A stretch of 64,000 nt of DNA from a phage, in sequence record PZ386967.1; one strand, 5' to 3'. Below, piece after piece: positions 1-32,509 of the stretch. The notes beneath the pieces were generated by a model, which worked only from the letters and a program-made list of their open reading frames with translations, ran no database searches and had not been told where the DNA came from. Positions within the stretch are counted from its first letter, which is position 1. Every line of letters starts with the position of its first letter. Made by a program: the position numbers and the translations under genes.

Positions 1-351
1 ACGTTCTACAGATTGAACGACCTGCCCGAGAGCCAGTGGGTTTGTGTCGGCGCCATCAGTAGGACTTGAACCAGTCCAAGTCCAGGTGATGCGTAAATTC
101 TGGTATGCTTCGTCAAGGGCGAACCCCATAACCTCAGTACCAGGAATGATACCCGTTGGAGACCAACCTAAACCAGCAGAGGAGGCGTTAGAAGCAGGCA
201 TCAGTACCTTCGCCCACGGGAGTTTGTCTGTAGGCAGGAGGACGGGATCGTCGGTGTGTACGCCATAGATGCGGACGGCGACGCGCCCGTTTTGGTCTGG
301 ATCGTTGACATCTTCAACGGTGCCGTAAAACCATCTCATATTGTCTAACAT
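1..351 (-). CDS. baseplate central spike/hub protein, gp5-like N-terminal OB-fold domain (partial; C-terminus lies beyond window start)
   Basis: Minus-strand frame open from ATG at 351 to position 1 (117 codons, hand-translated: MLDNMRWFYGTVEDVNDPDQNGRVAVRIYGVH...LPTDKLPWAKVL...). WFxGxVxDVxDPxxxGRVxVRIxGxH...PTDxLPWA pattern is typical of phage baseplate spike N-termini. Not in the supplied ORF track because it is truncated. Confidence 0.5.
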   Translation of the reverse strand, partial: MLDNMRWFYGTVEDVNDPDQNGRVAVRIYGVHTDDPVLLPTDKLPWAKVLMPASNASSAGLGWSPTGIIPGTEVMGFALDEAYQNLRITWTWTGSSPTDGADTNPLALGQVVQSVER

Positions 352-385
352 ATTGAGTTCCGGTTGTCAAACAAGGATTTGAAGG

Positions 386-393
386 TATTTATG
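386..393 (-). promoter_or_regulatory. candidate T4-type late promoter (CATAAATA on minus strand) about 34 nt upstream of gp5-like start
   Basis: Plus-strand tatttatg = minus CATAAATA, one mismatch from T4 late consensus TATAAATA; same spacing to start codon as the 6498-6505 element. Confidence 0.3.
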
Positions 394-690
394 CGCAGCT
401 GATTTTGCCTTATATACTATAGGAAGCTCTGCTTCCGTTCATTTTATTTGTTTTATTCGATCCTATTCGCTTCGCTCATCAAACCGCCCTATGCGGGCAG
501 CACCATTCCAATGCCATGGAGGCATAAGGGCGAGGCAATAACTGTACACCCCAGAACACTCCTTGAAAAATGGTATTTTACTGACAATCTGATTCAAAAC
601 AGACAAACACCAACAAATGACTCGGGAACAAGCCCATTATAGCAATTTCAGGTAAAAAGAGCGCGTGTTAACCGATTTTACAGTTAAGCC

Positions 691-716
691 AATAAAAATC
701 CCGCCGAAGCGGGATT
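691..716 (-). terminator. rho-independent terminator downstream of CDS 864..1670
   Basis: Stem ATCCCGC / GCGGGAT with CGAA loop; on the minus strand followed by TTTTTATTGG. Confidence 0.6.
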
Positions 717-863
717 ACTGTTTCTTAGACAACCTGACCTTGAGGGCTTCGGTTAACAAGTCAAGATGCCATGGCATCGACTCGTTGATTTCAAATATGC
801 TATAGCCGTGTAACTTCAATTCATCACACATCACGAAGTAGGATAATAAATCAGTTTCAAACA

Positions 864-1670
864 TTAAATGAAAATTTCATTAATACTATTGAATTCGATT
901 TTGTGCTCCTTACCACATTTCGGACACTTGATCGAACTCTTGTAGTGGATGCGCGGTATTTTATGGAAGAAGTTCTTCGTAATGCTGTCAATAACATCTG
1001 ATTCGATGTTATCCTTCACCCACTCAACAAACGCTTCTTTCACACGGCGGCGCTCAGTAGCCTCTTCCGGAGTGATTCCGATTTCTTCAGGATTCTCAAC
1101 CTTCCACACCTGACCGTCATCATCGTACAGACAGTCGATAAAGGTGGCCAGCATCATCTCAACGCTTGCAGCATCAGACAGTGCCGTAGCGTCCGAGAAG
1201 GAAGGTTGGCGCATCTTGAGGTGATATCCACCTGGCAGGTCAAACGTCTCCCGGAAGCCGTCCTGAGCAATGCATTTGACGTTGTTCAACGGGATAGGTA
1301 GAGTCAGTTCCTGCTCACAGGGAACCATCTGGTGCTTTTCTTGACCATCTCCCAGATCGATCGTTTCTTCAATCTGATTATTGCACTTATAACGAATCTT
1401 CATCAATTCACCGATGGAGATCATGCGCATGCGGATGAACACTTCCTCAACAACGCCGATTGGCAGTTTACTGAAAGGTGCGCCTGCATTTACACACTCG
1501 CTAAAGAGACTCTCCATCATGGCCGCGCGTTCTTCAATCGGCGTTTGCGGATCTGACACCTGAAGTAATAAAGTTTGTTGCCCCGCAGTAAAGGCGCGAT
1601 ATTTGATCACAGTAGGCCAAAAGTCGCTTTTATATGTCTTTTCTGTTCTGGGCAATGATGGTAAATTCAT
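864..1670 (-). CDS. hypothetical protein with C-terminal CxxC...zinc-ribbon-like motif (CPKCGKEH)
   Basis: ORF track 864..1784; start moved to ATG at 1670 (MNLPSLPRTEK...) which has GGAG 8 nt upstream and avoids overlap with 1714..2244. Function not recognised. Confidence 0.45.
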   Translation of the reverse strand: MNLPSLPRTEKTYKSDFWPTVIKYRAFTAGQQTLLLQVSDPQTPIEERAAMMESLFSECVNAGAPFSKLPIGVVEEVFIRMRMISIGELMKIRYKCNNQIEETIDLGDGQEKHQMVPCEQELTLPIPLNNVKCIAQDGFRETFDLPGGYHLKMRQPSFSDATALSDAASVEMMLATFIDCLYDDDGQVWKVENPEEIGITPEEATERRRVKEAFVEWVKDNIESDVIDSITKNFFHKIPRIHYKSSIKCPKCGKEHKIEFNSINEIFI

Positions 1671-1713
1671 AATGTATCTCCACGGTATATTGTAAGAGTA
1701 ATTATAACGAGGA

Positions 1714-2244
1714 ATGAAAATGCGCGGATTTTGTTTTAGTGAAATAGGCAAAGAACTGTCTATACAATATCCCGATCCCAACACAGACTTCTTTATCTTC
1801 CTGACTGATTATGCCAAGAAAGAGAATATCCTCCATGTGGCAATGAAACACGAAGATTATAAGTTCTGTCGGCTGGGTGTCAAAGACCTGCTGCGTTATG
1901 GTCTACAAGTGGTCATTGTAGACCCATACTACAGCCCTATCGACGATGAAGAAGTTCTACCCGTATATGTTCACCGCAACATCAATACATTGGAAAAGCA
2001 TTATCCAGATTGTATTGTCATCGGCGAACTCATCTCGTATTATCATCGTGTGCGAAAGCTGGAACAGATTAAAAGTTATTTTCAAGAGGGTGTTGGTCAA
2101 TATAAGATGAATGCCCTTAGTAGTGGATGGATGGTGCTGTCTTCAGCAGGCAGTGCTGACTATATTAAGATGCGTGTCTACCAATACGTTGTGGAGCGCG
2201 ATTATGAACTGGAGAAAAGTAATGCAAAACGAAAAACCCGTTGA
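1714..2244 (+). CDS. hypothetical protein
   Basis: 176-aa ORF, first gene of a plus-strand run ending at gp32; no recognisable motifs. Confidence 0.4.
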   Translation: MKMRGFCFSEIGKELSIQYPDPNTDFFIFLTDYAKKENILHVAMKHEDYKFCRLGVKDLLRYGLQVVIVDPYYSPIDDEEVLPVYVHRNINTLEKHYPDCIVIGELISYYHRVRKLEQIKSYFQEGVGQYKMNALSSGWMVLSSAGSADYIKMRVYQYVVERDYELEKSNAKRKTR

Positions 2245-2713
2245 ACGTGCTCCGATTGAGGAAGTACAACAACACGTCCTGGACCTTATGAAACACACAG
2301 TTTCTGATGCCGAAGGTAAAGTGCCGGATGAGTTCATCGGTGCGTTCGATCAGGTGGCTTTCGATACAGAGGGAGTTCCTTTGATCCAGACGATCGCTGG
2401 TATGGTTTTGTTTGAACCAAAAGCAGTAGAAAATGGCGTAATCGTCTACTCAGCCAACATCGGTGTGGACGGTGAGTCCCTGTCTCTCGAAGTTAGCAAC
2501 ATTGCTAAGTACCTGATCAAGTGTGGTTATGATCTGCAGGTTGTGACAGCCCACTACATCGATCCTCAGGGACAGATCTCCTACGGTGATGAAGCGCGCA
2601 AAGTGAAACGCCACATCGACACTACCGTGATCCTGCAGAGTATCCAACAGATGCAGAAGAACCTGGACCACCCTGGTCTGATCCTACCTGATAGCAAAAT
2701 CATCACCCGTTAA
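2222..2713 (+). CDS. hypothetical protein
   Basis: ORF track 2111..2713; internal ATG at 2222 (MQNEKPVER...) has GGAGAAAAGT upstream and overlaps the previous stop by 23 nt. Confidence 0.4.
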   Translation: MQNEKPVERAPIEEVQQHVLDLMKHTVSDAEGKVPDEFIGAFDQVAFDTEGVPLIQTIAGMVLFEPKAVENGVIVYSANIGVDGESLSLEVSNIAKYLIKCGYDLQVVTAHYIDPQGQISYGDEARKVKRHIDTTVILQSIQQMQKNLDHPGLILPDSKIITR

Positions 2714-2764
2714 CCCGGCGTAAATAGCCCATACACCAATGAAACTTCGTTATGGGCTATTTAC

Positions 2765-3355
2765 ATGAAATATTGCGGAATCGACTACTCCTATGGCTGT
2801 CCATCCCTGTGCTTCTGGGATGACAAAGACCCTCTTGATTTTGATCATCTGCGCTTCTACGCATATTATACTGTGGAGAAGTACTGCACTCAGATTCGTC
2901 AGAATATCCTTATCATGAAGCAACCGAAGTGGGAGACCCCAGAAGAACGCTTCTATAACATCTGTAAATGGGCTGAGGCTGTCCTGTTGACTGAGAAGCC
3001 GGATGTGATCACTCTTGAAGGGTATGCTATGGGCAACTCTAAGAACTCCAACAACATATGCCAGACCGCAGAGAATACCTCACTGTTGAAGCAAGCCCTG
3101 CGCCGTAACAATTTCGACTTCCAGATCGTGACGCCATCCCATGTGAAGAAGATGTTCACCGACAAGGGCAACGCGGATAAACACGCCATGATCGCTCACT
3201 TCGAGTCGCTGTTCAATGTTAATATGCGCGGTATAATGGATATGTTGGAAGTTAAGGATCCTAAGCCAATCGATGACCTCGTGGATTCGTTTGCGATAAT
3301 GGCTTGTGGCTCTTACTTCATTGAGAATAATCCAGACTTCAACAGAGGTATATGA
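2765..3355 (+). CDS. RuvC-like Holliday junction resolvase (putative)
   Basis: N-terminal CGIDYSYG (catalytic Asp context), ITLEGYA (Glu), C-terminal PIDDLVDSFAIMACG resembling the RuvC D-x-x-D-A motif. Motif-level only. Confidence 0.4.
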   Translation: MKYCGIDYSYGCPSLCFWDDKDPLDFDHLRFYAYYTVEKYCTQIRQNILIMKQPKWETPEERFYNICKWAEAVLLTEKPDVITLEGYAMGNSKNSNNICQTAENTSLLKQALRRNNFDFQIVTPSHVKKMFTDKGNADKHAMIAHFESLFNVNMRGIMDMLEVKDPKPIDDLVDSFAIMACGSYFIENNPDFNRGI

Positions 3356-3666
3356 TGGTCGATTATTGGTTGTTGGCGAACTTCCTGACGTTCGCTTTGT
3401 TGTTAGTGGTTGTCTTGGTCTGGGTGAAGTCGTTCTTCACTCTGGTTCATGCGTATGTGTACCAGATCAACTTCTACACGCTGTCCCCACATCGTGACAC
3501 GAACGTTCGTGCCGATCAACAGGCCGAGGCTATCCTCTCATATCAGTTCATCCACATGCGCGATAAAATGATCAAGCGTGTAGTGTTTTCTACAGTGATG
3601 TTGCTGGTTATCATTATGGTGCGTTTCGTACTGACAACCGTGGGGGTGTTCCATGCCGCTGTATGA
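3352..3666 (+). CDS. small membrane protein (hypothetical)
   Basis: Hydrophobic N-terminus (LLANFLTFALLLVVVLVWV) and second hydrophobic stretch; start overlaps upstream stop. Confidence 0.35.
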   Translation: MMVDYWLLANFLTFALLLVVVLVWVKSFFTLVHAYVYQINFYTLSPHRDTNVRADQQAEAILSYQFIHMRDKMIKRVVFSTVMLLVIIMVRFVLTTVGVFHAAV

Positions 3667-3898
3667 TTATCAATGCAAGGGCTGTGGTAACGCGATGACA
3701 CTGCGTAAATCTATTGCAGATCGCCATGAGCCTGAATCCAACCCTTGCACTGAGTGCGGAGGGGAGATTAAAATGATCGTGGGTGCTCCCAAGATTGTCT
3801 CTGGGGTGAAGGGACCACAATCAGCTCCAGACGGCTTCAAGGACGTCTTGCGTACGATAAAGAAGGGTTCGGGTAAGGGGAACACAATCGATGTCTGA
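3653..3898 (+). CDS. FmdB-family zinc-ribbon protein (putative)
   Basis: MPLYDYQCKGCG...CTECGG matches the MPxYxYxCxxCG...CxxCG zinc-ribbon signature. Confidence 0.45.
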   Translation: MPLYDYQCKGCGNAMTLRKSIADRHEPESNPCTECGGEIKMIVGAPKIVSGVKGPQSAPDGFKDVLRTIKKGSGKGNTIDV

Positions 3899-4136
3899 CG
3901 AAAAACAGCCAGCGCTTGTGATGACACCAGAATTATTTTCTGAAATCGTCCTACTACGCGCCGCCCAAACCAAGGATAGTATCCTTGAGACTCTGGCAGC
4001 TGTCTGTGAAGAGAACGACATAGACGAGACCAAAGTCAAAAAGATGATTACAGCACCATTGTTGTCACGACTGACAGCTGAGTGCTCCGATGCGCGCCTG
4101 ATCAAAGACGCGCTAAAGTCTAAGAAATTAGTGTAG
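3891..4136 (+). CDS. hypothetical protein
   Basis: 81-aa ORF in operon context, overlapping upstream stop. Confidence 0.35.
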   Translation: MSDEKQPALVMTPELFSEIVLLRAAQTKDSILETLAAVCEENDIDETKVKKMITAPLLSRLTAECSDARLIKDALKSKKLV

Positions 4137-4143
4137 GTCTATT

Positions 4144-4383
4144 ATGAGCAAAGAATCAATTTACAGCGCAATGAAAGCCTCCGAATTCCTTCCTGGCTCT
4201 ATGCGCTGGCGTGTGGGTAGCCTGAACGAGCATGCCGACCAGACGGATCGTATTCGTTACGTTACCCCTGATGGTCGCTCATATGTCGTTGAGTATCACA
4301 CGCACGACGAAGGCAAGAAGACGTTTTCGGACGTGTTCGACATTATTGAAATTGACCCAGCAAATCAAGTGCTTAAAGGTTAA
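4144..4383 (+). CDS. hypothetical protein
   Basis: 79-aa ORF directly upstream of the gp32 promoter/hairpin. Confidence 0.35.
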   Translation: MSKESIYSAMKASEFLPGSMRWRVGSLNEHADQTDRIRYVTPDGRSYVVEYHTHDEGKKTFSDVFDIIEIDPANQVLKG

Positions 4384-4407
4384 TTCAATGTAAGATCGGG
4401 GTATAAT
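4384..4407 (+). promoter_or_regulatory. TTCAAT-box / TATAAT promoter upstream of gp32, with -10 inside hairpin CGGGGTA-TAAT-TACCCCG
   Basis: TTCAAT at 4384-4389, TATAAT at 4402-4407; 7-bp GC stem flanks the -10; gp32 ATG at 4482. Confidence 0.4.
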
Positions 4408-4481
4408 TACCCCGCTTTGTAGCAAACTGAAATACATGTAACAGAATAGCCCTGAGGGGCGGAAACAGAGGAAATTAAGAA

Positions 4482-5492
4482 ATGGGTAATTTATTCGATC
4501 GTCTGAAAGCATCTCGTGGCCAGCAAACTGAAGCAATGCAGGCGCGTCTTGCACAGCAAGGCCAGAAGTCCGGTTTCCAGAAGGATCCTCGCATCTGGAA
4601 ATGGACTTGGAACAAAGATGGTATCTCCGAGAATATCATCCGCTTCCTGCCAGTCCCGCTGGTAGACCTCAAGGCACAGGAAGAAGGGACGATCGATAAA
4701 GATCAGATCCTCACCCCTTGTGCCATGATCATGAAGCATCAGTTCCAAGGACCTGGTGGTTGGTACATTGAGAACTCACCTCAGACGTTCGGCAACGACG
4801 ATCCGGTGCGCGACCATGACCGTCCGCTGTGGGCGCAGCAGAAAGAAACGAACGACGAAAAGCTGAAGGACATCCTGAAGAAACGTCTACCCAACACCGA
4901 TTACTACGCTAACATTCTGGTGATCAAAGATGTCAACGTACCGGAAAACAACGGCAAGGTCTTCCTGTTGAAATTTGGTAACGCCATCAAGAAAATCCTG
5001 GATCAGGCGCAGAATCCTAAGTTCCCAACCGACCCTAAATTCGATCCGTTCGATCTGTGGGAAGGTGCCAACCTGAACCTGAAGCTCTTTGGCGAGCAGA
5101 AGAAGTTTGGGAACTGGGAAGGTCTGGTGGCAAACTTCAGTAAGGTGGTGTGGGAGAACCCTGCCCCGCTGAGTGATGACGAAGCGTATATGGAAGACGT
5201 CTGGTCTCGTGAGCATAGCCTGTTTGAATTCTTCAATCCGGCTAACTTCAAAGACTACGACACCCTGGAAAAGCGCCTGCGCAAAGTTCTGGCAATTCCT
5301 GATGACCAGCCTCTGGTTGAAGGTGGTGCAGCCACGATGGCTCATGCTCCTAGCACCCAGACTACACATCAGCCAACTGCTCAAGACAGCCTGAAACAGC
5401 AACAGGCCGCGCCGTCGCAGGCTCAGACTCAACCGGATGCCAGAAACACGGCTACCATTGATGAATTCGAGCAGTATCTCAAGTCTAACTGA
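4482..5492 (+). CDS. 32: single-stranded DNA-binding protein (T4 gp32 family)
   Basis: IRFLP, YYANILVIKDVNVPENNGKVF and WEGANLNLK match remembered gp32 blocks; GAGGAAA SD; acidic C-terminal tail. Confidence 0.85.
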   Translation: MGNLFDRLKASRGQQTEAMQARLAQQGQKSGFQKDPRIWKWTWNKDGISENIIRFLPVPLVDLKAQEEGTIDKDQILTPCAMIMKHQFQGPGGWYIENSPQTFGNDDPVRDHDRPLWAQQKETNDEKLKDILKKRLPNTDYYANILVIKDVNVPENNGKVFLLKFGNAIKKILDQAQNPKFPTDPKFDPFDLWEGANLNLKLFGEQKKFGNWEGLVANFSKVVWENPAPLSDDEAYMEDVWSREHSLFEFFNPANFKDYDTLEKRLRKVLAIPDDQPLVEGGAATMAHAPSTQTTHQPTAQDSLKQQQAAPSQAQTQPDARNTATIDEFEQYLKSN

Positions 5493-5498
5493 TCAAAC

Positions 5499-5527
5499 AA
5501 GCCATCTTCGGATGGCTTTTTATTTTC
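5499..5527. terminator. bidirectional rho-independent terminator between convergent gp32 and 5520..6464
   Basis: AAGCCATC-TTCG-GATGGCTT hairpin with T-run on plus strand (TTTTATTTT) and A/T-rich flank on the other side. Confidence 0.65.
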
Positions 5528-6464
5528 CCATCACGTCTTTCAATATCCCCAACAGGCTTGTCTTCTCCGCCGCCGTCAGGTTATCGTTGCCCATGATGTC
5601 ACGAGAGATACCTACCGAGATGCGCTCGAAGTCCTGTATGCTTATCCCAGCCAGGTTGTTTACAAGTTGGTCAAGCTGTTTGTAAGCCAGGAGAGCCTCT
5701 CCTGTGAAGTTCCCTTCTTTCACCTTGCGATAAAGCTGTCCGGCTTTTGAGGCCGCAGTTTCCCAGTCACCACTGGTAAGAGCGTCAGCAATACCGAGAG
5801 GAAGAAAATCGCTGGAAAGGCTGCGTGTTTCATATTCTGTCTCCGAAAGCACTTTGTTGTAAGAGAAAGAAATGTTGTACTGGTTGAACTGGTCTGTGGC
5901 ACCTTTATCCAGCTCAATAGAACTGAAATTTATTGGGTGAGCCTCGACGATGTAGACGCGGTGGACCACTTGATCTTCGGTGTCAAGCTGTTCAATGCAT
6001 ATGTCAGTCACGAAGTCTTCGTAATATCCCATTTTGGTGGTGTGTGGATCAAAGATCAGACTCTTCCACTTGTCCATCACAGACTTCTCATAATAGTCAT
6101 TGGCTAATAAGAATGACAAGTCGAGGTCGACGTTGGACTTGTTGTTCGGCATCTTGATGTGATTACCGTTGCTTGTCATTGGAGTGGTGTCGATACCAAC
6201 CCCTGGCAATGAGGCAACCATACACATCATCTGAAGGGAACGGGACGTCTGGTTTGTCCCTCCAAAGAAAGCGTTTACAATACGGGCTGACTGCTTAAAC
6301 AAGTCACCGAAAGATGAATTGGTTCTGTACGCCTTTCCGTCATTAGCCAGAGTGGCATTGGAGTCAAAGATCCCTGGTGGTAGAGGGATGGTCACTCTGA
6401 AGCGGTTCTTGCGCGACAAGCCCCGCTGTAATATCTGTGTGATAAAATTGCGATAGTCTTCCAC
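5520..6464 (-). CDS. tail tube / baseplate-tail-tube junction family protein (gp19/gp48/gp54-like, putative)
   Basis: N-terminal RFRVTIPLPPGIF...VASLPGVGI resembles the tail-tube fold signature; GTG start with GGAG SD; TATAAATA late promoter 34 nt upstream. Confidence 0.4.
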   Translation of the reverse strand: MEDYRNFITQILQRGLSRKNRFRVTIPLPPGIFDSNATLANDGKAYRTNSSFGDLFKQSARIVNAFFGGTNQTSRSLQMMCMVASLPGVGIDTTPMTSNGNHIKMPNNKSNVDLDLSFLLANDYYEKSVMDKWKSLIFDPHTTKMGYYEDFVTDICIEQLDTEDQVVHRVYIVEAHPINFSSIELDKGATDQFNQYNISFSYNKVLSETEYETRSLSSDFLPLGIADALTSGDWETAASKAGQLYRKVKEGNFTGEALLAYKQLDQLVNNLAGISIQDFERISVGISRDIMGNDNLTAAEKTSLLGILKDVMGK

Positions 6465-6497
6465 GGTGAGGACTCCACTTAAATAAAATAACTGTTA

Positions 6498-6505
6498 TTA
6501 TTTAT
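6498..6505 (-). promoter_or_regulatory. T4-type late promoter TATAAATA (minus strand) upstream of 5520..6464
   Basis: Plus tatttata = minus TATAAATA, exact T4 late consensus, 34 nt from the start codon. Confidence 0.45.
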
Positions 6506-6517
6506 AGGAGTTGACAA

Positions 6518-7222
6518 ATGGCAAAGAATGCAGCTGGCGAAGAAGATCCGTTGCTGTTTCCGGCCGAGATGGACGCCCCCGAGCTGGTCAAGCGTTACAT
6601 CCGCAAGTACCGTCAACACTTCGGTCCAGAGGCGAAGCGTAACATCCGCCGTTCGCATGTGTGGTTCATGGAGCGTGTGTCTAAGGACGCCAACCTGAAT
6701 CCCAACCATATGAAACAGGCGTTTGCTGATCACAAACGTCCGGTACAAGGTGTGCGGTATATAGTCGGGCGTATGTTCTATTTCAAATATGATGCTCTGA
6801 CGAAGAATGAACTACCCTACTGGGATATGTACCCTCTGGTGTTCTTCTTCAACTTTGTCAAGGGTGATGGTATCACCTTTGGAGAGAAGGGTGTGACATA
6901 CCTCTGGGGACTCAACATGCACTACCTGCCACCGAAGCTCAGGCTGTTGGTGTTTGAGGATCTGATTAAGTTGCGTAACGAACGGGCATACCGCTCAAAG
7001 ACGCGTCTGAAGCTCACCTGGGAAGCCCTGAAGCGCTTCGCCAACCATCCGCTGTACAATCACTGTGTGAAGCTGTACCGCGCCGATCAGTTCCGTTCAC
7101 AGCTTTACGAGATTGAACCACAGTACTGGGAGATCGTTCTCTTCATGCGCACGGCTCGCTTCCAGAAACAGAGCCAGATGTCTGTGTGGAAAGATGCACG
7201 TCGTATGCATAAGAAGAAATAG
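6518..7222 (+). CDS. hypothetical protein
   Basis: 234-aa ORF with GGAG SD; basic C-terminus; no recognisable motif. Confidence 0.45.
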   Translation: MAKNAAGEEDPLLFPAEMDAPELVKRYIRKYRQHFGPEAKRNIRRSHVWFMERVSKDANLNPNHMKQAFADHKRPVQGVRYIVGRMFYFKYDALTKNELPYWDMYPLVFFFNFVKGDGITFGEKGVTYLWGLNMHYLPPKLRLLVFEDLIKLRNERAYRSKTRLKLTWEALKRFANHPLYNHCVKLYRADQFRSQLYEIEPQYWEIVLFMRTARFQKQSQMSVWKDARRMHKKK

Positions 7223-7285
7223 TTCTATAACCTGTTCCGAGGGATAATTCGTGAACGGGTAATCCTTCAACAATGAGGCTATAAC

Positions 7286-8035
7286 ATGTCACAAATGTAT
7301 CGTTTGTTCGGTCTGGAGTTTACGCCAGCCCGTCTTGAAATGAAACTCCCAAACTTTGAAAAGAGCGGGTTCGAAGTCGGTTGCGTCCTGGGGTTCGATC
7401 GCAATGGCAGATCTGTCCGTGAACACAATATCTTCGACGCGCTGGGTCTGAAAGAAGACAGCGAAACCGCAATTCAGTTCAGCGAAGACATTCGTTTTGG
7501 TCATGCCGACCTGTACGATTATGTCCGTGATGTGATCGCTGGATATGAACATGCCAAAGCGCATATGAAGATGGCGACAGAGGCTTGCCTGAAGCTGGCG
7601 CATTGTCTATACTTCTTTGGTCGCAAGCGTCAGAATCTCGATATGGTATTCCCATCGGAACTGCTTGAACGCTTCTCTGAAACCGAATTCCTGCTGAAGC
7701 AAGCTGACGGAGTTGCTGTCAAATCTAGTGAAGTATTCAAACACCCGATAAATCTGGTGTCTGGGCATCTGCTGGTAGGGCGTGATCAGGTCGACCTGGC
7801 GATTCATCCGGATATGGAGTATGATCAGAACTCCTGTCGTGCCATCCACAACTACGTAGGTGCCATTCTAGAAAACTTGTACTCAGCCATGGAAGAAGTG
7901 ATGGCAGCAGAACAACAGGAAGAAGTGATTCGTCGTATCCGCGAAGATATCGAAGGGAAGGTGAAACAGGATGTTCTGGTGGGATATCTACCAGAGCATT
8001 TCCCTGAAGTTCCAAACTTCTACCTGTCCAAATAA
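7286..8035 (+). CDS. hypothetical protein
   Basis: 249-aa ORF, same operon orientation. Confidence 0.45.
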   Translation: MSQMYRLFGLEFTPARLEMKLPNFEKSGFEVGCVLGFDRNGRSVREHNIFDALGLKEDSETAIQFSEDIRFGHADLYDYVRDVIAGYEHAKAHMKMATEACLKLAHCLYFFGRKRQNLDMVFPSELLERFSETEFLLKQADGVAVKSSEVFKHPINLVSGHLLVGRDQVDLAIHPDMEYDQNSCRAIHNYVGAILENLYSAMEEVMAAEQQEEVIRRIREDIEGKVKQDVLVGYLPEHFPEVPNFYLSK

Positions 8036-8049
8036 CTCCACTGTGAGAG

Positions 8050-8331
8050 GTGTGTATGAAACGTTATCTGAAGCTGACGACTGTCCTTGAGTCGATCATA
8101 GAGTATTTCATCATGCAACACCTCCGCGCCGACAACATGCATTTAGACGGTTGCCTGACGTATGACCACAAGATCATTGTCCATTCTGTTGAAGTGGTGG
8201 ATGATGATCTGATGATTGCAAATGTAGAACACTGTCTGTTTGATGAGTCGGTTGATGCGTACTGCCAACCACGGTTCGCAAAAGTCGAGCTAACAAATTG
8301 TTGGCCGCCGGAAATGGTTTTTCTATATTGA
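8050..8331 (+). CDS. hypothetical protein
   Basis: 93-aa ORF. Confidence 0.3.
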   Translation: MCMKRYLKLTTVLESIIEYFIMQHLRADNMHLDGCLTYDHKIIVHSVEVVDDDLMIANVEHCLFDESVDAYCQPRFAKVELTNCWPPEMVFLY

Positions 8332-8423
8332 CGTAGAAAGTTAATATTCACGCAAGTTCGCGCTCCACTTGGTCGCGCACCTTATAACACTAAGGTGTTA
8401 ACTTTCTTTTCAATAAAAAGTAG

Positions 8424-8520: not shown

Positions 8521-9360
8521 ATGTCATATATTCTTCATGTGGATTCTGGAACCAAAATTGAAATTGAAGGCAAAGACGTTGCTGCTATTCAGGCTGAAAT
8601 CAAAGAAGCAGGTCTGATCATCGGAAACGTTACCCTGCGCCGTATGGTTGAAGGTGTTCTTCAGGCTGCCAACGGCTTCGAACTGATTGAAGGTCTGAGC
8701 GCCGAAGAGAAGGAAGAAACTCAGCAGGCTCTGGCGCAAGCCCAAGAGCAAGCCCAAGCTGAAGTATCCCTGAAAGTCGCTGAAACCGTTGATGCTGAAG
8801 CACCGATCTCTGCCGATGCATGTGAAGCCCCAGTGTCCGACGCCCCGGTAGACGCGGTTGAAGATGCAGTCAACGCGGCGCTGGAAGAAGGCAATCAGCC
8901 GTCCGACGCGAAAATCGGTTCCTTAGCGTCTTCTATGCTGAAAGAAGCATCGAAGGGTAAGACCCTGACCCCGCAGGCAGCGCTGGTAGAGCGTAAACGC
9001 CGTCACACCAAACGTGAGGAAATGGTTGACTTGGCTCGCGCTTCTAATCACGGTCCGGTCTTGGCGGCGATTGAAGCTGGTGTTGTCCCCGGCGTGTTCC
9101 TGAGCTACGTGAACCCAGACATGCGTTGGTTCCAGTTCCCGGTCACCGAACTGGCTAACCCTGAAAACCTTCACGCCCGCACCAATACGTATGTCGACGT
9201 TGCGCCTATCGTTTCCGGTGGCTGGGGCTTCAGTCTGTACGTGAACGGCAAGTCCTTCACCAAACGTCAGAAGATCAAAGAGTCTGATGCTGAGTCTCTG
9301 GTTAAGGCGATCAATGAATGGCTTCCACAGGCTCTGGCTGAAGCGAAAGCTGCTGCGTAA
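8521..9360 (+). CDS. hypothetical protein (Ala/Glu-rich central region)
   Basis: 279-aa ORF following promoter region; no recognisable catalytic motif. Confidence 0.45.
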   Translation: MSYILHVDSGTKIEIEGKDVAAIQAEIKEAGLIIGNVTLRRMVEGVLQAANGFELIEGLSAEEKEETQQALAQAQEQAQAEVSLKVAETVDAEAPISADACEAPVSDAPVDAVEDAVNAALEEGNQPSDAKIGSLASSMLKEASKGKTLTPQAALVERKRRHTKREEMVDLARASNHGPVLAAIEAGVVPGVFLSYVNPDMRWFQFPVTELANPENLHARTNTYVDVAPIVSGGWGFSLYVNGKSFTKRQKIKESDAESLVKAINEWLPQALAEAKAAA

Positions 9361-9390
9361 TTTAAGTTCAGAAACTGTTCAAAAGATGAA

Positions 9391-9424
9391 GGGGCTGCTA
9401 TAATAGCAGCTCCTTTTGTTTATT
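9391..9424 (+). terminator. terminator hairpin that also carries a TATAAT in its loop (terminator/promoter unit)
   Basis: GGGGCTGCTAT-AAT-AGCAGCTCC followed by TTTTGTTTATT; TTCAAA box 15 nt upstream of the TATAAT. Confidence 0.5.
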
Positions 9425-9434
9425 GGAGCAGTTT

Positions 9435-10094
9435 ATGTCCTACTCCCTGAAGGGGTTGATGAAGCGCCCCGTCCACACATTCTTTAAACCACCCGTCGTA
9501 AAGGGGATCTACCCAGCACGAGGGCAAATCTACTACGTCAAAGGCTCCAATGGTAGCGGTAAATCCACTGTGCCGTCTCAGCTGGCGGAGAGGGATCCTC
9601 AGGCGTATGTCGTGACCCATAATGGCAAGGTCATGCTGACTGTCTGTCCTTCGTTCAACGTGGTCTGTATCGGTAAATATGACAAGTCGAAGTCCAAGGG
9701 GGTTGATTCCCTGAAGGACACTGAGCAGATGTTGTTCGCGTTGTCTATTGCTGACCAACCAGAATACTTGAAATATGATGTGATTTTCGAAGGTATCATT
9801 CCATCCACATTATTGAGTTCTTGGATCCCCCGTCTGACACGCCCACCACGTGAATTGGTTGTGCTCTTTATGGACACTCCTCTTGAAACGTGTATCACCC
9901 GCGTTAAATCACGTAACGGCGGTGTGGACTTCAATGAAAGTCTGGTGGTCGAGAAGTGGGAGAGAGTTCATGACCATCGTCAACGACATAAAGACTTGTT
10001 CCCTACGGTAGCTGCGGGTATGATGAAGTCTCACGGCCTAACGGTAGACCAGGCTGTGATGGCATTCCTCTGTCGTGATTTTGGGAGTATCTGA
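9435..10094 (+). CDS. P-loop kinase, polynucleotide-kinase (Pnk) kinase-domain-like, no phosphatase domain
   Basis: Walker A GSNGSGKST in a context resembling T4 Pnk N-terminus (remembered GCPGSGKST); ORF track start 9423 is TTG, ATG at 9435 has GGAG SD; stop overlaps next gene start. Confidence 0.5.
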   Translation: MSYSLKGLMKRPVHTFFKPPVVKGIYPARGQIYYVKGSNGSGKSTVPSQLAERDPQAYVVTHNGKVMLTVCPSFNVVCIGKYDKSKSKGVDSLKDTEQMLFALSIADQPEYLKYDVIFEGIIPSTLLSSWIPRLTRPPRELVVLFMDTPLETCITRVKSRNGGVDFNESLVVEKWERVHDHRQRHKDLFPTVAAGMMKSHGLTVDQAVMAFLCRDFGSI

Positions 10095-11140
10095 TGGAAA
10101 TCAAAGCAATTAACAACAATGACATGCTGAAGCAGGCTGTCTTGGCTATCCGTGAATTCGGGATCGAATCTGATCCTGGTAATGCTGAAATCAATACTGA
10201 TAGCACCCGCTTCCTTGATGGTGTGACTATCACTGTTTCCGATATTCGTGACCGCTGGCTCTCCGTTGAAGGTCGCAACTCATCGGCTATCGCTGCCATC
10301 GGCGAGACCTTCTGGGTGTTGTCAGGTCGCAACGACATAAAGTTCCTGTCACGCGTATTGCCTCGCGCTGCTAACTTTTCGGATGATGGGGTAACATGGC
10401 GAGCTGCTTATGGTCCGCGTCTGTACGCCCATGGCCAGCTGGATAGCGTTATCAACCGCCTGCGCAAGAACCCAAACACTCGTCAGGCGTACCTCACCAT
10501 CTATGACCCGGCTCTAGATTCGGATGCTGGTCTGGCGAAGTTCAGCGAGAGCGGCGAAGCAAAGACTAAAGACATGGTGTGTAACCTGGCTCTGTTGTTC
10601 GCCATCGTTGAAGGTCGTCTGAACCTGACGGTCATCAATCGCTCACAGGATGTTCTGTGGGGGATGAGTTCAATCAACTTCATTGAGTTCTCTATTCTTC
10701 AGGAAGTGATTGCTCGGGTGTTAGATGTTGATGTCGGTCAGTACAAGCTCTTCTCCAACAATCTTCATTACTACAACAATGAAGTCAGCCAGAAGCAGCT
10801 GGGAAAGATCACGAAGGACACCAAAGTAGAAGCTGGGTTCATCAACACCATGATTCACTTCACGAACGTGACCAACCAGAACCATATCCGCAATCTGTTC
10901 ACTGGTGTGCTTCATCACTGTGATATCGGTAGCCCGTGGGAAACTGTGGTTGCTCACCTGAAGGAATACGATGCGGATCGCGGCCTGATTGTACAGATGG
11001 CGTACTGTCTGCACTGCAAACTGAACGAAAAGCTCATTAACCTGGACCTGATTCAGGATCATGGCTTGAACACCGCGCTCACCCATTCTCCGGTTGACCG
11101 CAAGATCGTTGATCCTAAGTTCCTGGAAGGTGTAGTATGA
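10094..11140 (+). CDS. thymidylate-synthase-fold pyrimidine hydroxymethylase / TS homolog with about 100-aa C-terminal extension
   Basis: ETFWVLSGRNDIKFL, WRAAYGPRLY, RQAYLTIYDP, catalytic Cys in MVCNLALLF, NRSQDVLWGMSSINF align to conserved ThyA blocks; Asn retained at the base-specificity position (uracil-type). Confidence 0.6.
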   Translation: MEIKAINNNDMLKQAVLAIREFGIESDPGNAEINTDSTRFLDGVTITVSDIRDRWLSVEGRNSSAIAAIGETFWVLSGRNDIKFLSRVLPRAANFSDDGVTWRAAYGPRLYAHGQLDSVINRLRKNPNTRQAYLTIYDPALDSDAGLAKFSESGEAKTKDMVCNLALLFAIVEGRLNLTVINRSQDVLWGMSSINFIEFSILQEVIARVLDVDVGQYKLFSNNLHYYNNEVSQKQLGKITKDTKVEAGFINTMIHFTNVTNQNHIRNLFTGVLHHCDIGSPWETVVAHLKEYDADRGLIVQMAYCLHCKLNEKLINLDLIQDHGLNTALTHSPVDRKIVDPKFLEGVV

Positions 11141-16464: not shown

Positions 16465-17658
16465 ATGAACGTCAAAACATTCAATATTCCGATCGACAAT
16501 GAAGGGTTGGTAGTTGAGCGACTGAAGAAGCTCGAGCGCACTGCCGAAAGGTTGGGTGTTCCGTTTCCGACTGTGACTTATGGTGAACCCTTCAAAACCC
16601 ACACCCGCGACTTCACTGGTGAGATCCTTACTCACTGGTGGAAACCTGTTACTCTCGAAGGCGAAGGCATTGACCGCCCCGTCTCTTATGGTGGCTGGAA
16701 GATCATCGGTCAGTTCAATCACGAATATCCAAAGGTTATTCTTAACCGCCTGTCCGACAACATCAATCCTGACTTCATCCGTCACTTCGAGACAGAGAAC
16801 GTCTCTTGGTGTCAGCATTGCAATCTAGTCATCCGTCGCAAGAACACGTATGTGATTGAAAATGAGGAAACGCATACCCAGATGCTGATTGGTAGCACCT
16901 GTATGCATCATTATGTGCCTCATCAGAAGTCCCTTGACGCGATTATGTCTTACTATCTGGAAATCCAAGAGTTCTTCATGCCAGACGAGGACGACCCAGA
17001 GGGTATATATCGCGTCCAAAATGAGCGCTTCGTCGACACCCACAGTTTCCTGCGCGCATGCTTCCAGGTGATGCTAGCAGGCGTGGATATCAAGTCTGAA
17101 CTGTTTGACAAAGTACTGGGCTATGTCCGGTCTCATCAGAAACCAAAAGCAGGTTCCGATGAAGAGTATTTCGTAAACAAGGCACACGAATACCGTGAAG
17201 ATGCCGAGTCGGAAATGTACCATATGAAGCTTTTCATCAGTGCGCTGTCCGAATCTAATGAGTTCAATGTTCGCCTGAAACGCATGTGTGAACCCGGCTA
17301 TCACCTCATCAAGGATAACAACACAGTCCGCTGGGGTGCCAAGAAGTATTACGATTACATCCATCGTCCTCGTACTGACCGCAAGGCGGAGAACAAATGG
17401 GTGGGTGAAGTCGGTGAAATGCTGGAAGTGCAAGTCAGGTTCGACAAGCGCACCTTCCTCTTCTCCAATGAATATGGTGATAGCTACCTGTTTACTTTCA
17501 AAACAGCAGAAGGCAATACAATTACCTGGAAGACCTCTTATATGGATACAGAGTTCTTGCAGGGTGATATGATCATCCGTGGTCGTGTTAAAGAACTGAC
17601 TGAGTACAACGGCGTTAAACAAACTCAGGTCACCAGAGCTAAATTGAGGAAGTTATGA
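16465..17658 (+). CDS. hypothetical protein with Cys/His cluster (CQHCN...CMHH)
   Basis: ORF track 16432..17658 (TTG); ATG at 16465 has GAGG SD. Occupies the position where T4 has primase gp61, but no clear TOPRIM motifs were recognised. Confidence 0.4.
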   Translation: MNVKTFNIPIDNEGLVVERLKKLERTAERLGVPFPTVTYGEPFKTHTRDFTGEILTHWWKPVTLEGEGIDRPVSYGGWKIIGQFNHEYPKVILNRLSDNINPDFIRHFETENVSWCQHCNLVIRRKNTYVIENEETHTQMLIGSTCMHHYVPHQKSLDAIMSYYLEIQEFFMPDEDDPEGIYRVQNERFVDTHSFLRACFQVMLAGVDIKSELFDKVLGYVRSHQKPKAGSDEEYFVNKAHEYREDAESEMYHMKLFISALSESNEFNVRLKRMCEPGYHLIKDNNTVRWGAKKYYDYIHRPRTDRKAENKWVGEVGEMLEVQVRFDKRTFLFSNEYGDSYLFTFKTAEGNTITWKTSYMDTEFLQGDMIIRGRVKELTEYNGVKQTQVTRAKLRKL

Positions 17659-17767
17659 ATTTGATTGAGTTTGTTCTGAAGTCGTTCGCCTTCGGTCTGA
17701 TAGCATGTGGGATGATTACAGCTATGCTTCTCATCATAGCCCTGGTCATCCCCTTTAAGAGGAAACG

Positions 17768-17983
17768 TTGATGGAATGTTCATGCGGAGGGCAGGGCACA
17801 AGTGCTTACCTGCCATTCACCACTGTGAAGGAAGCCGAAGCCGCTGGATTTGCCGTGGACAAGGCTCCCTGTGTAATCGCCACGAAGGATTGCCCGTGCT
17901 GTAAGAGGCACTCTCAGGACGTCTTCTACGCTCCTGATGCGCGTCCGGCTACGGTCAACCTACTCTCATTGATGAGGAAGTGA
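17768..17983 (+). CDS. small Cys-rich protein (hypothetical)
   Basis: 71 aa with CSCGG...CPCC. Confidence 0.3.
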   Translation: MMECSCGGQGTSAYLPFTTVKEAEAAGFAVDKAPCVIATKDCPCCKRHSQDVFYAPDARPATVNLLSLMRK

Positions 17984-18160
17984 CATGCGCAAGTATTTCA
18001 ACTGGCTGTTGGCAAGCCCCTGAGCACCGAAATCCGTTGTCTGATAGATGCGATCGATGTTGAAATGGAATGGCGAGCGCCGGATTAATCGCACAAAGGC
18101 TCAGGCCGAAATTAAAATCGTGAAGAAGTCCACAAGGCTCTGGGTTTCATAACAAATAAT

Positions 18161-18186
18161 TCAATAAACTATTCACCCATATAATA
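18161..18186 (+). promoter_or_regulatory. TTCAAT-box / TATAAT promoter upstream of 18214
   Basis: AATTCAATAAAC, 14-nt spacer, TATAAT; GAAGGAA SD before ATG at 18214. Confidence 0.45.
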
Positions 18187-18213
18187 CATGGGAACTTACA
18201 GAAGGAACAGACC

Positions 18214-18555
18214 ATGACTACACTCGTAGAAACATTATTCCCAGGCTGCGTGCTTGGGCGCGGTGGATCCGAAGCCAACGGGCTACCGATTGACGTCGAA
18301 CCTCAGAACTGTGTTATTGTTGACAAGTTTCACGACAACCACTATGCCCTGAACAATCGTCGTGACCACTATCTTGTTTCCGTAGGAGATTCTTTGGTCA
18401 GTCTGCGCATCTGCAAGGCTATGCCAGGATCCGGCTATGGAGCATTCGCCTATATTCACAGCGTGTCAAATGACAAGCTGGGTAAAGAAGCCCTGGTTGA
18501 AAAATTCAAGAGTTGGAAGGATTCTTTCACCTCAATTGAACCCCCGAAGAAATAA
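18214..18555 (+). CDS. hypothetical protein
   Basis: 113-aa ORF. Confidence 0.4.
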   Translation: MTTLVETLFPGCVLGRGGSEANGLPIDVEPQNCVIVDKFHDNHYALNNRRDHYLVSVGDSLVSLRICKAMPGSGYGAFAYIHSVSNDKLGKEALVEKFKSWKDSFTSIEPPKK

Positions 18556-18572
18556 CTGAGGACTACACACTG

Positions 18573-19181
18573 ATGTCACTGAAAAACTTACTGAAACGCA
18601 TCTTCACCACTGTTGAAGCTAACGTCACCGCAGGTCTGGATAAACTGACCGACACCGAAAAGCGCCTGAACCTGGCTGCTCGCAAGCTGTCTGACGAAAT
18701 CCGTCGCCTGGAGGAAGCCCGTGTCACCAACGTCCGCAACGGCGTCAAGCTGAAGAAGACCGCAGAACAGAACCTAAGTGAAGCCGCCAAGCGCGAAGAA
18801 GTTCTGAAGGACGCCATCGCTCGTGGTGTCACACCAACCCGCGCCGACGCCCTGATTATTCTGCATCGCCGCCGTATCGGTGAAGCCCTGTTGGCTCAGG
18901 TGAAGGACATCGAAGCAAGCAGCGACAAACTGAACGGTGCGATCATCCAGCTGGGTGACAAACTGGACGAAGTCAAGTCCAATCTCGAGCTGGTTCGTGT
19001 TCAGAAAGAGACGAACGACCTGGGTCTGGTGCTCCCTGAAGATATCGATTATGCCGCTGGTATGACCACCATCGATATCGATGCCATCCTGCGCGAAACC
19101 GAAATCGCTGATTCGAGCTACTCCGCCAACAGCCCGTCGTCTATCGAAGCCGACAACTACCTCGCCAGCCTGAGCAAATAA
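18573..19181 (+). CDS. PspA/IM30-like coiled-coil protein (putative)
   Basis: N-terminal RIFTTVEANVTAGLDKLTDTEKRLNLAARKLSDEI resembles remembered PspA N-terminus ([23 protein letters not shown]...); about 200 aa, heptad-rich. Confidence 0.35.
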   Translation: MSLKNLLKRIFTTVEANVTAGLDKLTDTEKRLNLAARKLSDEIRRLEEARVTNVRNGVKLKKTAEQNLSEAAKREEVLKDAIARGVTPTRADALIILHRRRIGEALLAQVKDIEASSDKLNGAIIQLGDKLDEVKSNLELVRVQKETNDLGLVLPEDIDYAAGMTTIDIDAILRETEIADSSYSANSPSSIEADNYLASLSK

Positions 19182-19195
19182 CATCAGAGGGGCTT

Positions 19196-19756
19196 ATGCC
19201 CCTCTATCACTTCGGGGATCTTATGAACATTATTGATTCTTTCAACATACTCACTGGTGCTACTGCTTTCGTTCTTTTGTGTATTGGCAGTGCCTGGCTG
19301 AGAGGTCGACTGAAGAAACGGGAAGTCTTGAAGCGAGACCGTATTGACATCCACAAAATAATGCTGGATAGAACTTGCAAACATGGCCCCAGCGGTGACT
19401 TCCGTTTGTATTATTTGTCGGATGAAGTCACCCCTTCGGAATTCTTCAATTATGCGATGGCTGGGTTGCGATGGCCGGAGATAAACGGCGTTGTTCAGAA
19501 AACTGATTACGTGTACGTGAATATGGCTTCCCTGAACAAGCACGGGGAACGCGACGATCTGCGGATGTGGTTCTTTGGAGGAGAGGAACAAGAAGAGTTT
19601 GTAAAAGAACTTGCTCTCTTGCTTAACACGTACGAAAAGGCTGGTTGCCCACCACTCGAGGTGGAAGAATCAGTAGAATCTATCGTGGCTCGCGCTCGTG
19701 GTGAAACCGTGGATCTACTGAACAAATACGGCTTTGTCTGGGCGGAGGGTTCATGA
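19196..19756 (+). CDS. membrane-anchored protein (hypothetical)
   Basis: N-terminal TM helix (LTGATAFVLLCIGSAWL); follows the PspA-like gene. Confidence 0.4.
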   Translation: MPLYHFGDLMNIIDSFNILTGATAFVLLCIGSAWLRGRLKKREVLKRDRIDIHKIMLDRTCKHGPSGDFRLYYLSDEVTPSEFFNYAMAGLRWPEINGVVQKTDYVYVNMASLNKHGERDDLRMWFFGGEEQEEFVKELALLLNTYEKAGCPPLEVEESVESIVARARGETVDLLNKYGFVWAEGS

Positions 19757-19810
19757 TGGATACAGAAGTCATTATCAGCCAAGCAAGATCCCACACCCGC
19801 CAATAATCTA

Positions 19811-30943: not shown

Positions 30944-31353
30944 TCTAAAATCGGTACGTTCACAAACCCTTTATGCCAGCGATGGGGTTTATGGCCTCTG
31001 TTGTGTTCGAGCAAACACGTATCCGGTGGGACACTGAAGTGGATGCCTTCGATGTCGTAGTAATGCCCATCAATCAGAGTATACACATGACCTTCGGTCT
31101 GACTGTAATGGATCTCTGCTTGGGGATACACGTGCTTCAGAAGTAGAGCAACCTGGTAACACTTCCCGTTCTTCCCCACGTACTCGACATCCACCTGTTG
31201 TGGAAACACATCTTTGATAAGGTTTATCAATCTCGTGATGTCATTTACGACAACCGAACGTTTCATATCACCTCTCCCGAGGATTCGTTGGTGAACCAAT
31301 GATACTCTATCCCGGATATAGAAAAGCCCCTCACGGGGCTTGATCGTCTTCAT
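30925..31353 (-). CDS. hypothetical protein
   Basis: 142-aa ORF. Confidence 0.35.
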
Positions 31354-31633
31354 CAGGGAATATACGCCATCGACCTATTCCATACCACTCACCGATAGAG
31401 TTCCATGTCCTTTCCCCAGGCCAGCCGCCGACCGAGTAGTAATGCGTCACCAGCCGCCAGTAAGGAAGAGAGGCCGTGTTCACGCCGCCGTCGGCCTTTA
31501 GGCAGGCCAAGTACCAATTCGTGAGACTGAACGCCTGAAATAACGGATGAAGGAACATGAAGTACAGGTAGCCCAATATGGCTGTGAATACCCCAGCTGT
31601 TACGATCACACCGATGACAGTGAATACAATCAT
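31331..31633 (-). CDS. small membrane protein (hypothetical)
   Basis: Hydrophobic N-terminal helices. Confidence 0.3.
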   Translation of the reverse strand: MIVFTVIGVIVTAGVFTAILGYLYFMFLHPLFQAFSLTNWYLACLKADGGVNTASLPYWRLVTHYYSVGGWPGERTWNSIGEWYGIGRWRIFPDEDDQAP

Positions 31634-32262
31634 CCCACAACCTCCAGACCCATCAGATCTTCCATGGTCTTCTGAATACGCAGCCAGTCAAGCGCAGCGT
31701 CATAACGAGGGTCATGATAGACCATACCTTCCAGTTCCCACGCCTTGATACCAGCATACCGATCCTGCTGTCCAACACCCTTCAGCCAACTCACGATGTC
31801 GAAGGTGTGGTGGTAGTCCCAAGGCTCGTTGGAGTCCTGCTTACATGTCACCTCAATGATGTGCTGAGCCTTGCGCAGATCAAACAGGTTGCGATCACAC
31901 CAGTCGACCGAGCGCGGGTCTACCCCAAGACGATGACAACCCTTGCGGATTTCATCGGCCAATTGGAAGATAGAGATGTCATCTTCCTTGGGGTACAGAC
32001 TGACTGCGCGAGCCGCATCACACGGGTTACGTTTACCCGCCCCCAACCACCATTCTACCGTCCCAGCGTCCTTCACGCGACCAAGTTCGAGCTGCTCTTT
32101 GACATTCAGCTTAATGAACGTCGTGCGCTCCTCAACCAGCTGCTGAAGAGTATAACGCTTGGTCAGGTCGGCGATGGTGTGCGCCCAAGACAGCATGACT
32201 GCATCATCCCAGCGCCCCAAGGTTTCACTGTCGGCCACAGCCAAAAAATTTGATTTATACAT
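31630..32262 (-). CDS. dexA: DEDD-type 3'-5' exonuclease (T4 DexA-like)
   Basis: Exo I motif AVADSETLG, GTVEWW block and C-terminal HDPRYDAALDWL resemble remembered DexA blocks. Confidence 0.5.
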   Translation of the reverse strand: MYKSNFLAVADSETLGRWDDAVMLSWAHTIADLTKRYTLQQLVEERTTFIKLNVKEQLELGRVKDAGTVEWWLGAGKRNPCDAARAVSLYPKEDDISIFQLADEIRKGCHRLGVDPRSVDWCDRNLFDLRKAQHIIEVTCKQDSNEPWDYHHTFDIVSWLKGVGQQDRYAGIKAWELEGMVYHDPRYDAALDWLRIQKTMEDLMGLEVVG

Positions 32263-32506: not shown

Positions 32507-32509
32507 TAT

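Follow-up and report, generated by a model that had tools for sequence, protein, structure and literature searches.

The gene at positions 2765..3355 (+ strand) of a 64,000-nucleotide (nt) stretch of phage DNA (record PZ386967.1; hereafter the window) encodes a RuvC-like structure-specific endonuclease of 196 amino acids (aa), which belongs to phrog_159 and PF02075. We consider it likely that this protein is a catalytically competent RuvC-family endonuclease that resolves and debranches DNA junctions in the place of endonuclease VII (endo VII) of phage T4, and that it is made mainly late. This view is based on the fold, the conservation of the active site, the absence of endo VII, the synteny, the conservation of a hairpin before the gene and the positional enrichment of a late-promoter-like box. 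From these we infer the dimerisation, substrate, timing and in vivo role of the enzyme. The source phage belongs to the Ackermannviridae, as do Enterobacter phage fGh-Ecl02 (98.8% identity over window 2000-5600) and Shigella phage Ag3 (approximately 94%), both Vi1-like myoviruses. The whole window aligned with fGh-Ecl02 in local blocks of about 94-99% identity. The Ackermannviridae have T4-type replication, recombination and morphogenesis genes in common; strictly speaking, they are not relatives of T4.

The 196-aa protein matched phrog_159, the 'RuvC-like Holliday junction resolvase' family, with an E-value of 1.4e-53. The Pfam family PF02075 (RuvC) was matched marginally, with 23.5 bits against a gathering cutoff of 22.2 (E 5.5e-5), and the same family was matched by 64 of 104 diverse family members, the best with an E-value of 2.9e-10. 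Because a single-sequence phmmer search of the protein against PDB returned only noise (all E-values at least 0.41), family profiles were needed. A 22-sequence profile retrieved RuvC chains and almost nothing besides from the PDB sequences. With the 104-sequence family profile, all seven matches were RuvC, including those of D. radiodurans (E 6.4e-8), T. thermophilus (5e-4), E. coli (0.0095) and P. aeruginosa (0.024). An AlphaFold2 model built from the 22-sequence alignment had a mean predicted local distance difference test (pLDDT) score of 88.9 and a predicted template modelling (pTM) score of 0.87, and it shows an RNase H-like alpha/beta fold with the helix arrangement of RuvC. When the model was compared with PDB by Foldseek, the top 12 matches were bacterial RuvC (E 2e-8 to 4e-6), followed by Ydc2, the RuvC of Lactococcus phage bIL67 and chloroplast MOC1. 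The PHROG, Pfam, PDB-profile and structural results thus bear out the RuvC fold that the initial annotation had put forward as a candidate.

The protein differs from the characterised members of the family in several respects. It shares 13-18% identity with bacterial RuvC (E. coli 1HJR, T. thermophilus 4LD0/6S16, P. aeruginosa 6LW3 and D. radiodurans 7W8D). It is approximately 20 residues longer between D7 and E85, where it has an extra beta strand (48-52), and approximately 14 residues longer between E85 and D171. Unlike bacterial RuvC, it is phage-encoded and has no RuvAB partner genes nearby. The characterised phage enzyme, bIL67 RuvC (4KTW), is 13-14% identical and belongs to another PHROG family. 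Its phage, a small siphovirus, infects a Gram-positive host; the phage studied here is a myovirus of 155 kb that carries T4-type genes for replication and recombination. The proteins of Ag3 (YP_003358558) and fGh-Ecl02 (USL85907) are the same protein, with 92-99.5% identity, and their names are homology-based. Homologs were found by tblastn in 419 phage records, including Vibrio, Pseudomonas, Delftia and rhizobial T4-like phages.

The profile search yielded 6,090 clusters at 50% identity with an E-value of 0.001 or lower (489 with 1e-30 or lower), and conservation was determined in an alignment of 185 proteins drawn from the 6,090 clusters. E85, D171 and D174 are present in 185/185 homologs, and D7 in 184/185, the sole exception being a gap in an N-terminally short sequence. 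K128, G135, K139 and P168 are likewise found in 185/185. The four acidic codons lie at 2783-2785 (D7), 3017-3019 (E85), 3275-3277 (D171) and 3284-3286 (D174) on the + strand. Both MAFFT --add and hhalign placed these residues opposite D7, E66, D138 and D141 of E. coli RuvC (EcRuvC), the reference sequence of which was checked against PDB 1HJR, and the tetrad also aligned in a hidden Markov model alignment to P. aeruginosa RuvC. EcRuvC D7, E66, D138 and D141 have been named as the catalytic residues (PMC3864405). The same two methods placed K128 and K139 opposite EcRuvC K107 and K118. Both of these lysines are functionally important in EcRuvC. The initial annotation had made its proposal depend on a conserved acidic tetrad; since the tetrad is invariant in the 185 homologs save for one gap, the objection fixed in advance fails. 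The same invariance speaks against the idea that the protein, like mitochondrial TEFM, is a catalytically dead RuvC fold that serves in structure or in DNA binding. Retention of all four carboxylates and of both lysines in 185 diverse homologs is expected only if catalysis is under selection, and we regard a dead enzyme as extremely improbable.

The setting of the enzyme was examined in the genome of fGh-Ecl02. This genome encodes UvsX, UvsY, UvsW, gp46/47, gp59, gp41, gp61, gp43/45/44/62, gp32, RNase H and DexA, and in its whole annotation the sole junction-resolving enzyme is the RuvC-like gene. No endo VII is annotated in fGh-Ecl02. A tblastn search with T4 gp49 (query sequence checked against PDB 1E7D) found no homolog in fGh-Ecl02 or the window; the best match had an E-value of 0.14 over 21 residues and sits inside an annotated putative homing endonuclease gene of fGh-Ecl02. 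The 71 annotated hypothetical proteins of fGh-Ecl02 with at least 100 aa were scanned against Pfam, and among the best 25 of 36 families (E < ~4e-4) there was no Endonuclease_7 (PF02945), RusA, RecU, Hjc or phage endo I; a resolvase family with a weaker match, at an E-value between 4e-4 and 0.01, may be among the others. A comparative study from 2024 lists a 'RuvC-like Holliday junction resolvase' among the proteins conserved across Vi01-like phages, together with a 'zinc ribbon domain-containing protein', and never mentions endonuclease VII (PMC10892097). The RuvC-like protein has no homology to endo VII (gp49), which is a zinc-binding beta-beta-alpha-Me (HNH-type) nuclease; it would be a functional analogue of T4 gp49 in a phage with UvsX/gp32-type recombination. 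The T4-type recombination genes and the lack of a detectable endo VII in fGh-Ecl02 support the earlier suggestion that junction resolution is solved differently here than in T4.

Resolvase activity has been proven for the RuvC of bIL67, whose specificity for branches is relaxed, and this enzyme was proposed to clear branches before packaging (PMC3864405). Gp49 of T4 frees packaging motors stalled on branched DNA (PMC9958956). By analogy with these enzymes, we infer that the RuvC-like protein would resolve recombination intermediates and debranch concatemers ahead of headful packaging. As proposed, it would be a stand-alone RuvC-family nuclease of the RNase H fold that works like other RuvC resolvases. 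A homodimer would bind branched DNA, four-way junctions among it, and would introduce paired nicks by means of a two-metal (Mg2+) site that consists of D7, E85, D171 and D174 and is assisted by K128/K139. In this way, Holliday junctions from recombination-dependent replication by UvsX/UvsY/UvsW/gp46-47/gp32 would be resolved and concatemers debranched, so that headful packaging could proceed.

An active RuvC-fold nuclease may also have a main role other than resolution or debranching. Examples are the cutting of host forks or of the host chromosome for nucleotides, or telling unmodified host DNA from hypermodified phage DNA. Cleavage of forks by bIL67 RuvC is on record, with degradation of the host chromosome proposed as a benefit (PMC3864405). 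The presence of thymidine-hypermodification genes (a 5-hydroxymethyldeoxyuridine (5-hmdU) DNA kinase domain and an aGPT-Pplase2-like protein) is in line with such a role, and so is the occurrence of homologs in Delftia phage PhiW-14. The DNA of PhiW-14 contains putrescinyl-thymine. Three points favor resolution and debranching instead: no second resolvase is detectable beside the full T4-type recombination machinery of fGh-Ecl02, the predicted late timing suits packaging more than early host shut-off, and the closest structural matches are bona fide Holliday junction resolvases. We therefore consider a different main role unlikely. The hypermodification genes lie at 7171-8406 and 17651-18844 in fGh-Ecl02, with counterparts at about 50-60 kb of the window. 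Annotation notes describe the set as an aGPT-Pplase2-like protein and a pyridoxal phosphate (PLP)-dependent enzyme, and the 5-hmdU DNA kinase helical domain (PF18723, E 2e-83) was found in one of the scanned hypothetical proteins of fGh-Ecl02. The resolvase probably has to act on hypermodified DNA. It is a more speculative idea, added to the strongest form of the late-control proposal given below, that the enzyme is adapted to cutting DNA with hypermodified thymidine.

The evidence for late timing comes from the 51-nt spacer directly before the gene. This spacer contains a 14-bp RNA hairpin (2720..2764, + strand) with a 5' arm at 2720-2733 (GTAAATAGCCCATA) and a 3' arm at 2751-2764 (TATGGGCTATTTAC), and its last paired base stands directly before the ATG. 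The predicted folding energy (RNAfold) is -25.3 kcal/mol, with a z-score of -4.08, and none of 200 shuffled sequences was equally stable. A late-promoter-like box, CGTAAATA (core TAAATA; 2719..2726, + strand), lies 38 nt upstream of the ATG, and its TAAATA core is part of the 5' arm. The hairpin is kept in every Ackermannviridae lineage sampled, among them Agtrevirus, Kuttervirus, Taipeivirus and the Erwinia phages. MAFFT did not bring the 5' arm of this region into register, owing to a G:C pair inserted in the window lineage; compensatory changes were read straight from the sequences and not from the MAFFT alignment. Double-sided changes that preserve pairing include A:T to G:C, A:T to T:A and the inserted G:C pair. 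The arms read GCCCATA/TATGGGC in the window, CCCATAAC/GTTATGGG in Kuttervirus and Taipeivirus, CCCATATC/GATATGGG in the sampled sequence L025, CCCGTAAC/GTTACGGG in the sampled sequence L029, and CCCG/CGGG in the Erwinia phages. Across 14 Ackermannviridae sequences, TAAATA is the only invariant part of the 5' arm, and in the Erwinia phages the box is the exact T4 late-promoter octamer TATAAATA. Rfam returned no match in window 1-7000 at E-values up to 1. The hairpin together with the TAAATA box suggests late-only expression of the resolvase, with the box as its putative promoter.

The box was then placed in the context of the genome. Exact TATAAATA occurs twice in the 64-kb window, which is no more than chance, and the motif with one mismatch is under-represented. 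Because the exact T4 motif was at chance level, a local motif was derived from late-gene upstream regions, by comparison of the sequences upstream of the structural and lysis genes of fGh-Ecl02. The motif nCTAAATAc is found 31-50 nt upstream of the starts of gp6, gp14, the tail sheath, gp22, gp5, gp54, gp2, gp48 and gp4, and also of three tail spikes, vriC, endolysin and uvsW. Most replication genes of fGh-Ecl02 are without nCTAAATAc, and several have TATAAT elements instead. For open reading frames (ORFs) of at least 60 codons in fGh-Ecl02, 26 of the 56 TAAATA sites lie 20-50 nt upstream of an ORF start, and so do 13/17 CTAAATA sites. At random positions this proportion is 6.8%, which means that TAAATA is enriched approximately 7-fold (binomial P about 5e-16). 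Of the TAAATA sites linked to a gene, most stand before genes for structure or lysis or before others that are likely late. In this phage group, the core of the late promoter thus appears to be nCTAAATAc and not the strict T4 octamer, and it stands upstream of about 25 genes of fGh-Ecl02.

In a subset of these genes, the box forms the 5' arm of a strong hairpin. These are tail spikes 1-3, endolysin, gp14, an ORF with DUF3990 and the ruvC-like gene, with positions in fGh-Ecl02 of about 17610(-), 27788, 30863, 33045, 45322, 102040 and 112951, and 0-6 nt separate the end of the 3' arm from the start codon. The arrangement suggests that this class of genes shares a late-only translation gate. In T4, the ribosome-binding site is sequestered in the long transcripts of the early and middle phases, and the late promoter is placed such that late transcripts escape the structure (PMC2988022). 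The examples given there are I-TevI, soc and e, and the text lists 'soc, e, 39, 25 and 26'. The precedent of gene 49 rests on the same review, the sources of which include the Barth 1988 paper on gene 49. The promoter-in-hairpin arrangement predicted here for late-only expression resembles this T4 late-gene arrangement.

Under the proposed mechanism, the hairpin would bury the translation start of the resolvase gene, and read-through transcripts from upstream would adopt the fold, with poor translation or termination as the outcome. With a start approximately 6 nt beyond the box (at about 2732-2734), late transcripts would be free of the 5' arm and would be translated. The nuclease would then be made mainly late. 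Such timing would fit a debranching enzyme and would limit the exposure of replicating DNA to the nuclease early on. A stronger form of this proposal is that the resolvase is one of the few Ackermannviridae genes whose late box doubles as an arm of a start-occluding hairpin, that translation is licensed only on late transcripts, and that the arrangement is convergent with the T4 late-gene control described in PMC2988022. We put this form forward tentatively, with somewhat more doubt than belief.

Several observations weigh against the model of a late-made resolvase. The loop 88-102, which adjoins E85, has low confidence in the AlphaFold2 model. EcRuvC F69 is without an exact equivalent; Y87, present in 181/185 homologs, is one position off. 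The NCBIfam RuvC equivalog NF000711 scored 31.3 bits against a cutoff of 163, and the protein is therefore a distant family member and no ortholog of the RuvAB-coupled bacterial RuvC. The Pfam scan of fGh-Ecl02 also detected a PD-(D/E)XK nuclease (PDDEXK_1), a possible second branch-processing enzyme, although this match is probably the annotated exonuclease adjoining uvsY. With regard to timing, the box CGTAAATA has two mismatches to T4 TATAAATA and one to the local consensus CTAAATA, and a literature search found no Ackermannviridae transcriptome or map of transcription start sites. In Kuttervirus, a T-rich run (TATTTTTAT) follows the hairpin, which favors another reading of the structure: the hairpin could, instead or as well, be an intrinsic terminator that insulates the late genes. 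A scan for sigma-70 promoters and terminators left the hairpin at 2720-2764 unflagged, because its tail in the window has only 4 T in 8 bases.

The identification of the gene is correct and was already known. Many GenBank and RefSeq records name it 'RuvC-like Holliday junction resolvase' or 'crossover junction endodeoxyribonuclease', and it is covered by phrog_159 and by the Vi01-like list (PMC10892097). Because its identity was already in the annotations and in a published list, confirmation changes little. The case would be a clean non-orthologous displacement, in which a RuvC-fold enzyme stands in for endo VII as the only recognisable junction-resolving or debranching enzyme. This study adds an explicit test of the active site in a family of very large size, with about 6,000 clusters at 50% identity, evidence that the late-promoter core of these phages is TAAATA and not strict TATAAATA, and a testable model in which a promoter placed in a hairpin restricts production of the nuclease to the late phase. 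The last two are modest additions along the known T4 paradigm. If the model is true, the control of the resolvase is a convergent re-creation of T4 late-gene control on a non-homologous enzyme with the same job. The thymidine-hypermodification genes in the same genome could make the substrate preferences of the resolvase mildly interesting.

The RuvC-like gene is followed by two small genes, and the three ORFs occupy, as initially annotated, 2765-3355, 3352-3666 and 3653-3898, all on the + strand. The second gene (3352..3666, phrog_4696) encodes a 104-aa protein with two predicted transmembrane helices, and its start overlaps the ruvC-like stop by 4 nt (ATGATG). The Kyte-Doolittle plot shows hydrophobic stretches at roughly 5-37 and 76-104, and the Ag3 annotation notes two transmembrane domains, in agreement with the small membrane protein described earlier. 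The third gene (3653..3898) overlaps the membrane protein gene by 14 nt and encodes an 81-aa CxxC...CxxC zinc-ribbon protein. Its assignment to the FmdB type holds, since it scored above the cutoffs of both TIGR02605 'FmdB family zinc ribbon protein' (41.2 bits against 31.3) and PF09723 Zn_ribbon_8 (36.2 bits against 34.4), and C8, C11, C32 and C35 are invariant in six homologs from four Ackermannviridae genera, Vibrio phage K356 and Delftia phage PhiW-14. A C-terminal GF...I...NTIDV tail is also conserved. The Ag3 record (7774-7899) annotates only the C-terminal 41 aa of this ORF. The 41 positions of phrog_16163 match residues 41-81 of the window protein (E 1.7e-29), and this family may have its origin in truncated annotations like that of Ag3.

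The zinc-ribbon gene overlaps by 8 nt the start of a gp33-type late-transcription coactivator gene (3891..4136, + strand; PF16805 E 8.5e-18, phrog_254). This is followed by a conserved 79-aa ORF (4144..4383, + strand; phrog_4100) and by gp32, the single-stranded DNA-binding protein (4482..5492, + strand; PF08804 E 1.6e-55), so that the RuvC-like gene does lie upstream of gp32 on the same strand, as had been stated. The order RuvC-like gene, membrane protein, zinc ribbon, gp33, small ORF and gp32 is kept in Agtrevirus, Kuttervirus and Taipeivirus. Nezavisimistyvirus has the same gene order, but gp33 and the small ORF are unannotated in its record. This order, in which the start and stop codons of the first three genes overlap, would fit one module of RuvC-like, membrane and zinc-ribbon proteins, such as a resolvase tethered to the membrane or targeted by the zinc ribbon. 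However, the zinc-ribbon gene of Vibrio phage K356 and of Delftia phage PhiW-14 still stands directly before gp33 and overlaps it, apart from the RuvC-like gene. Between the RuvC-like gene and the zinc ribbon, PhiW-14 has an unrelated 180-aa ORF and endolysin, and K356 has different small ORFs. Thousands of members of the wider RuvC-like family lack such a neighbourhood, and RuvC-type resolvases are not known to need a partner for cleavage. No evidence was found for a three-protein junction-resolution module or for a link of the membrane protein or the zinc ribbon to resolution, and we think such a module very unlikely.

The zinc ribbon and gp33 form a pair that spans 3653-4136 in the window, 3621-4104 in the sampled sequence L009 and 4148-4647 in the sampled sequence L010. 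Because the zinc ribbon stays with gp33 in K356 and PhiW-14, it tracks gp33, and thus late transcription, and not the resolvase. This hints at a role of the zinc ribbon in late transcription. In T4, dsbA holds the same position, upstream of gene 33.

A further hairpin, CGGGGTATAATTACCCCG (4397..4414, + strand), lies in the 98-nt spacer before gp32 and has a TATAAT embedded in its loop and stem. It may serve gp32 specifically, as a promoter or as a leader element. In fGh-Ecl02, TATAAT elements of a similar kind stand before nrdA, ligase, uvsY and gp44, and the hairpin could belong to a promoter class or be an analogue of the autoregulatory leader of T4 gene 32. An intrinsic terminator (5499..5518, + strand), an 8-bp stem followed by a T run, closes the same-strand cluster; the annotations of Ag3 and Klebsiella phage May show it at the corresponding position. 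The three genes had been placed inside a gp32 operon. The shared strand and the one strong terminator after gp32 agree with that description; the late-promoter-like box and hairpin of the ruvC-like gene itself, and the TATAAT-bearing leader of gp32, do not. Since gp32 has its own leader, the region is better called a same-strand cluster with internal signals and a shared terminator.

On the 5' side of the RuvC-like gene, two ORFs without assigned function (1714-2244 and 2222-2713) lie on the same strand, followed by the 51-nt spacer. Within the first of them, the minus strand carries a perfect sigma-70 promoter at 1856-1883 (TTGACA-16-TATAAT, 12/12). It aims at the opposite-strand gp26 baseplate-hub gene, which is odd for a structural gene. 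The alignment of the window with fGh-Ecl02 breaks at about 17764-19769, 31266-32508, 49844-50081 and 52293-53081. One of these breaks coincides with an annotated homing-endonuclease gene of fGh-Ecl02 (8964-10562), and the mobile-element content therefore probably differs between the window and fGh-Ecl02.

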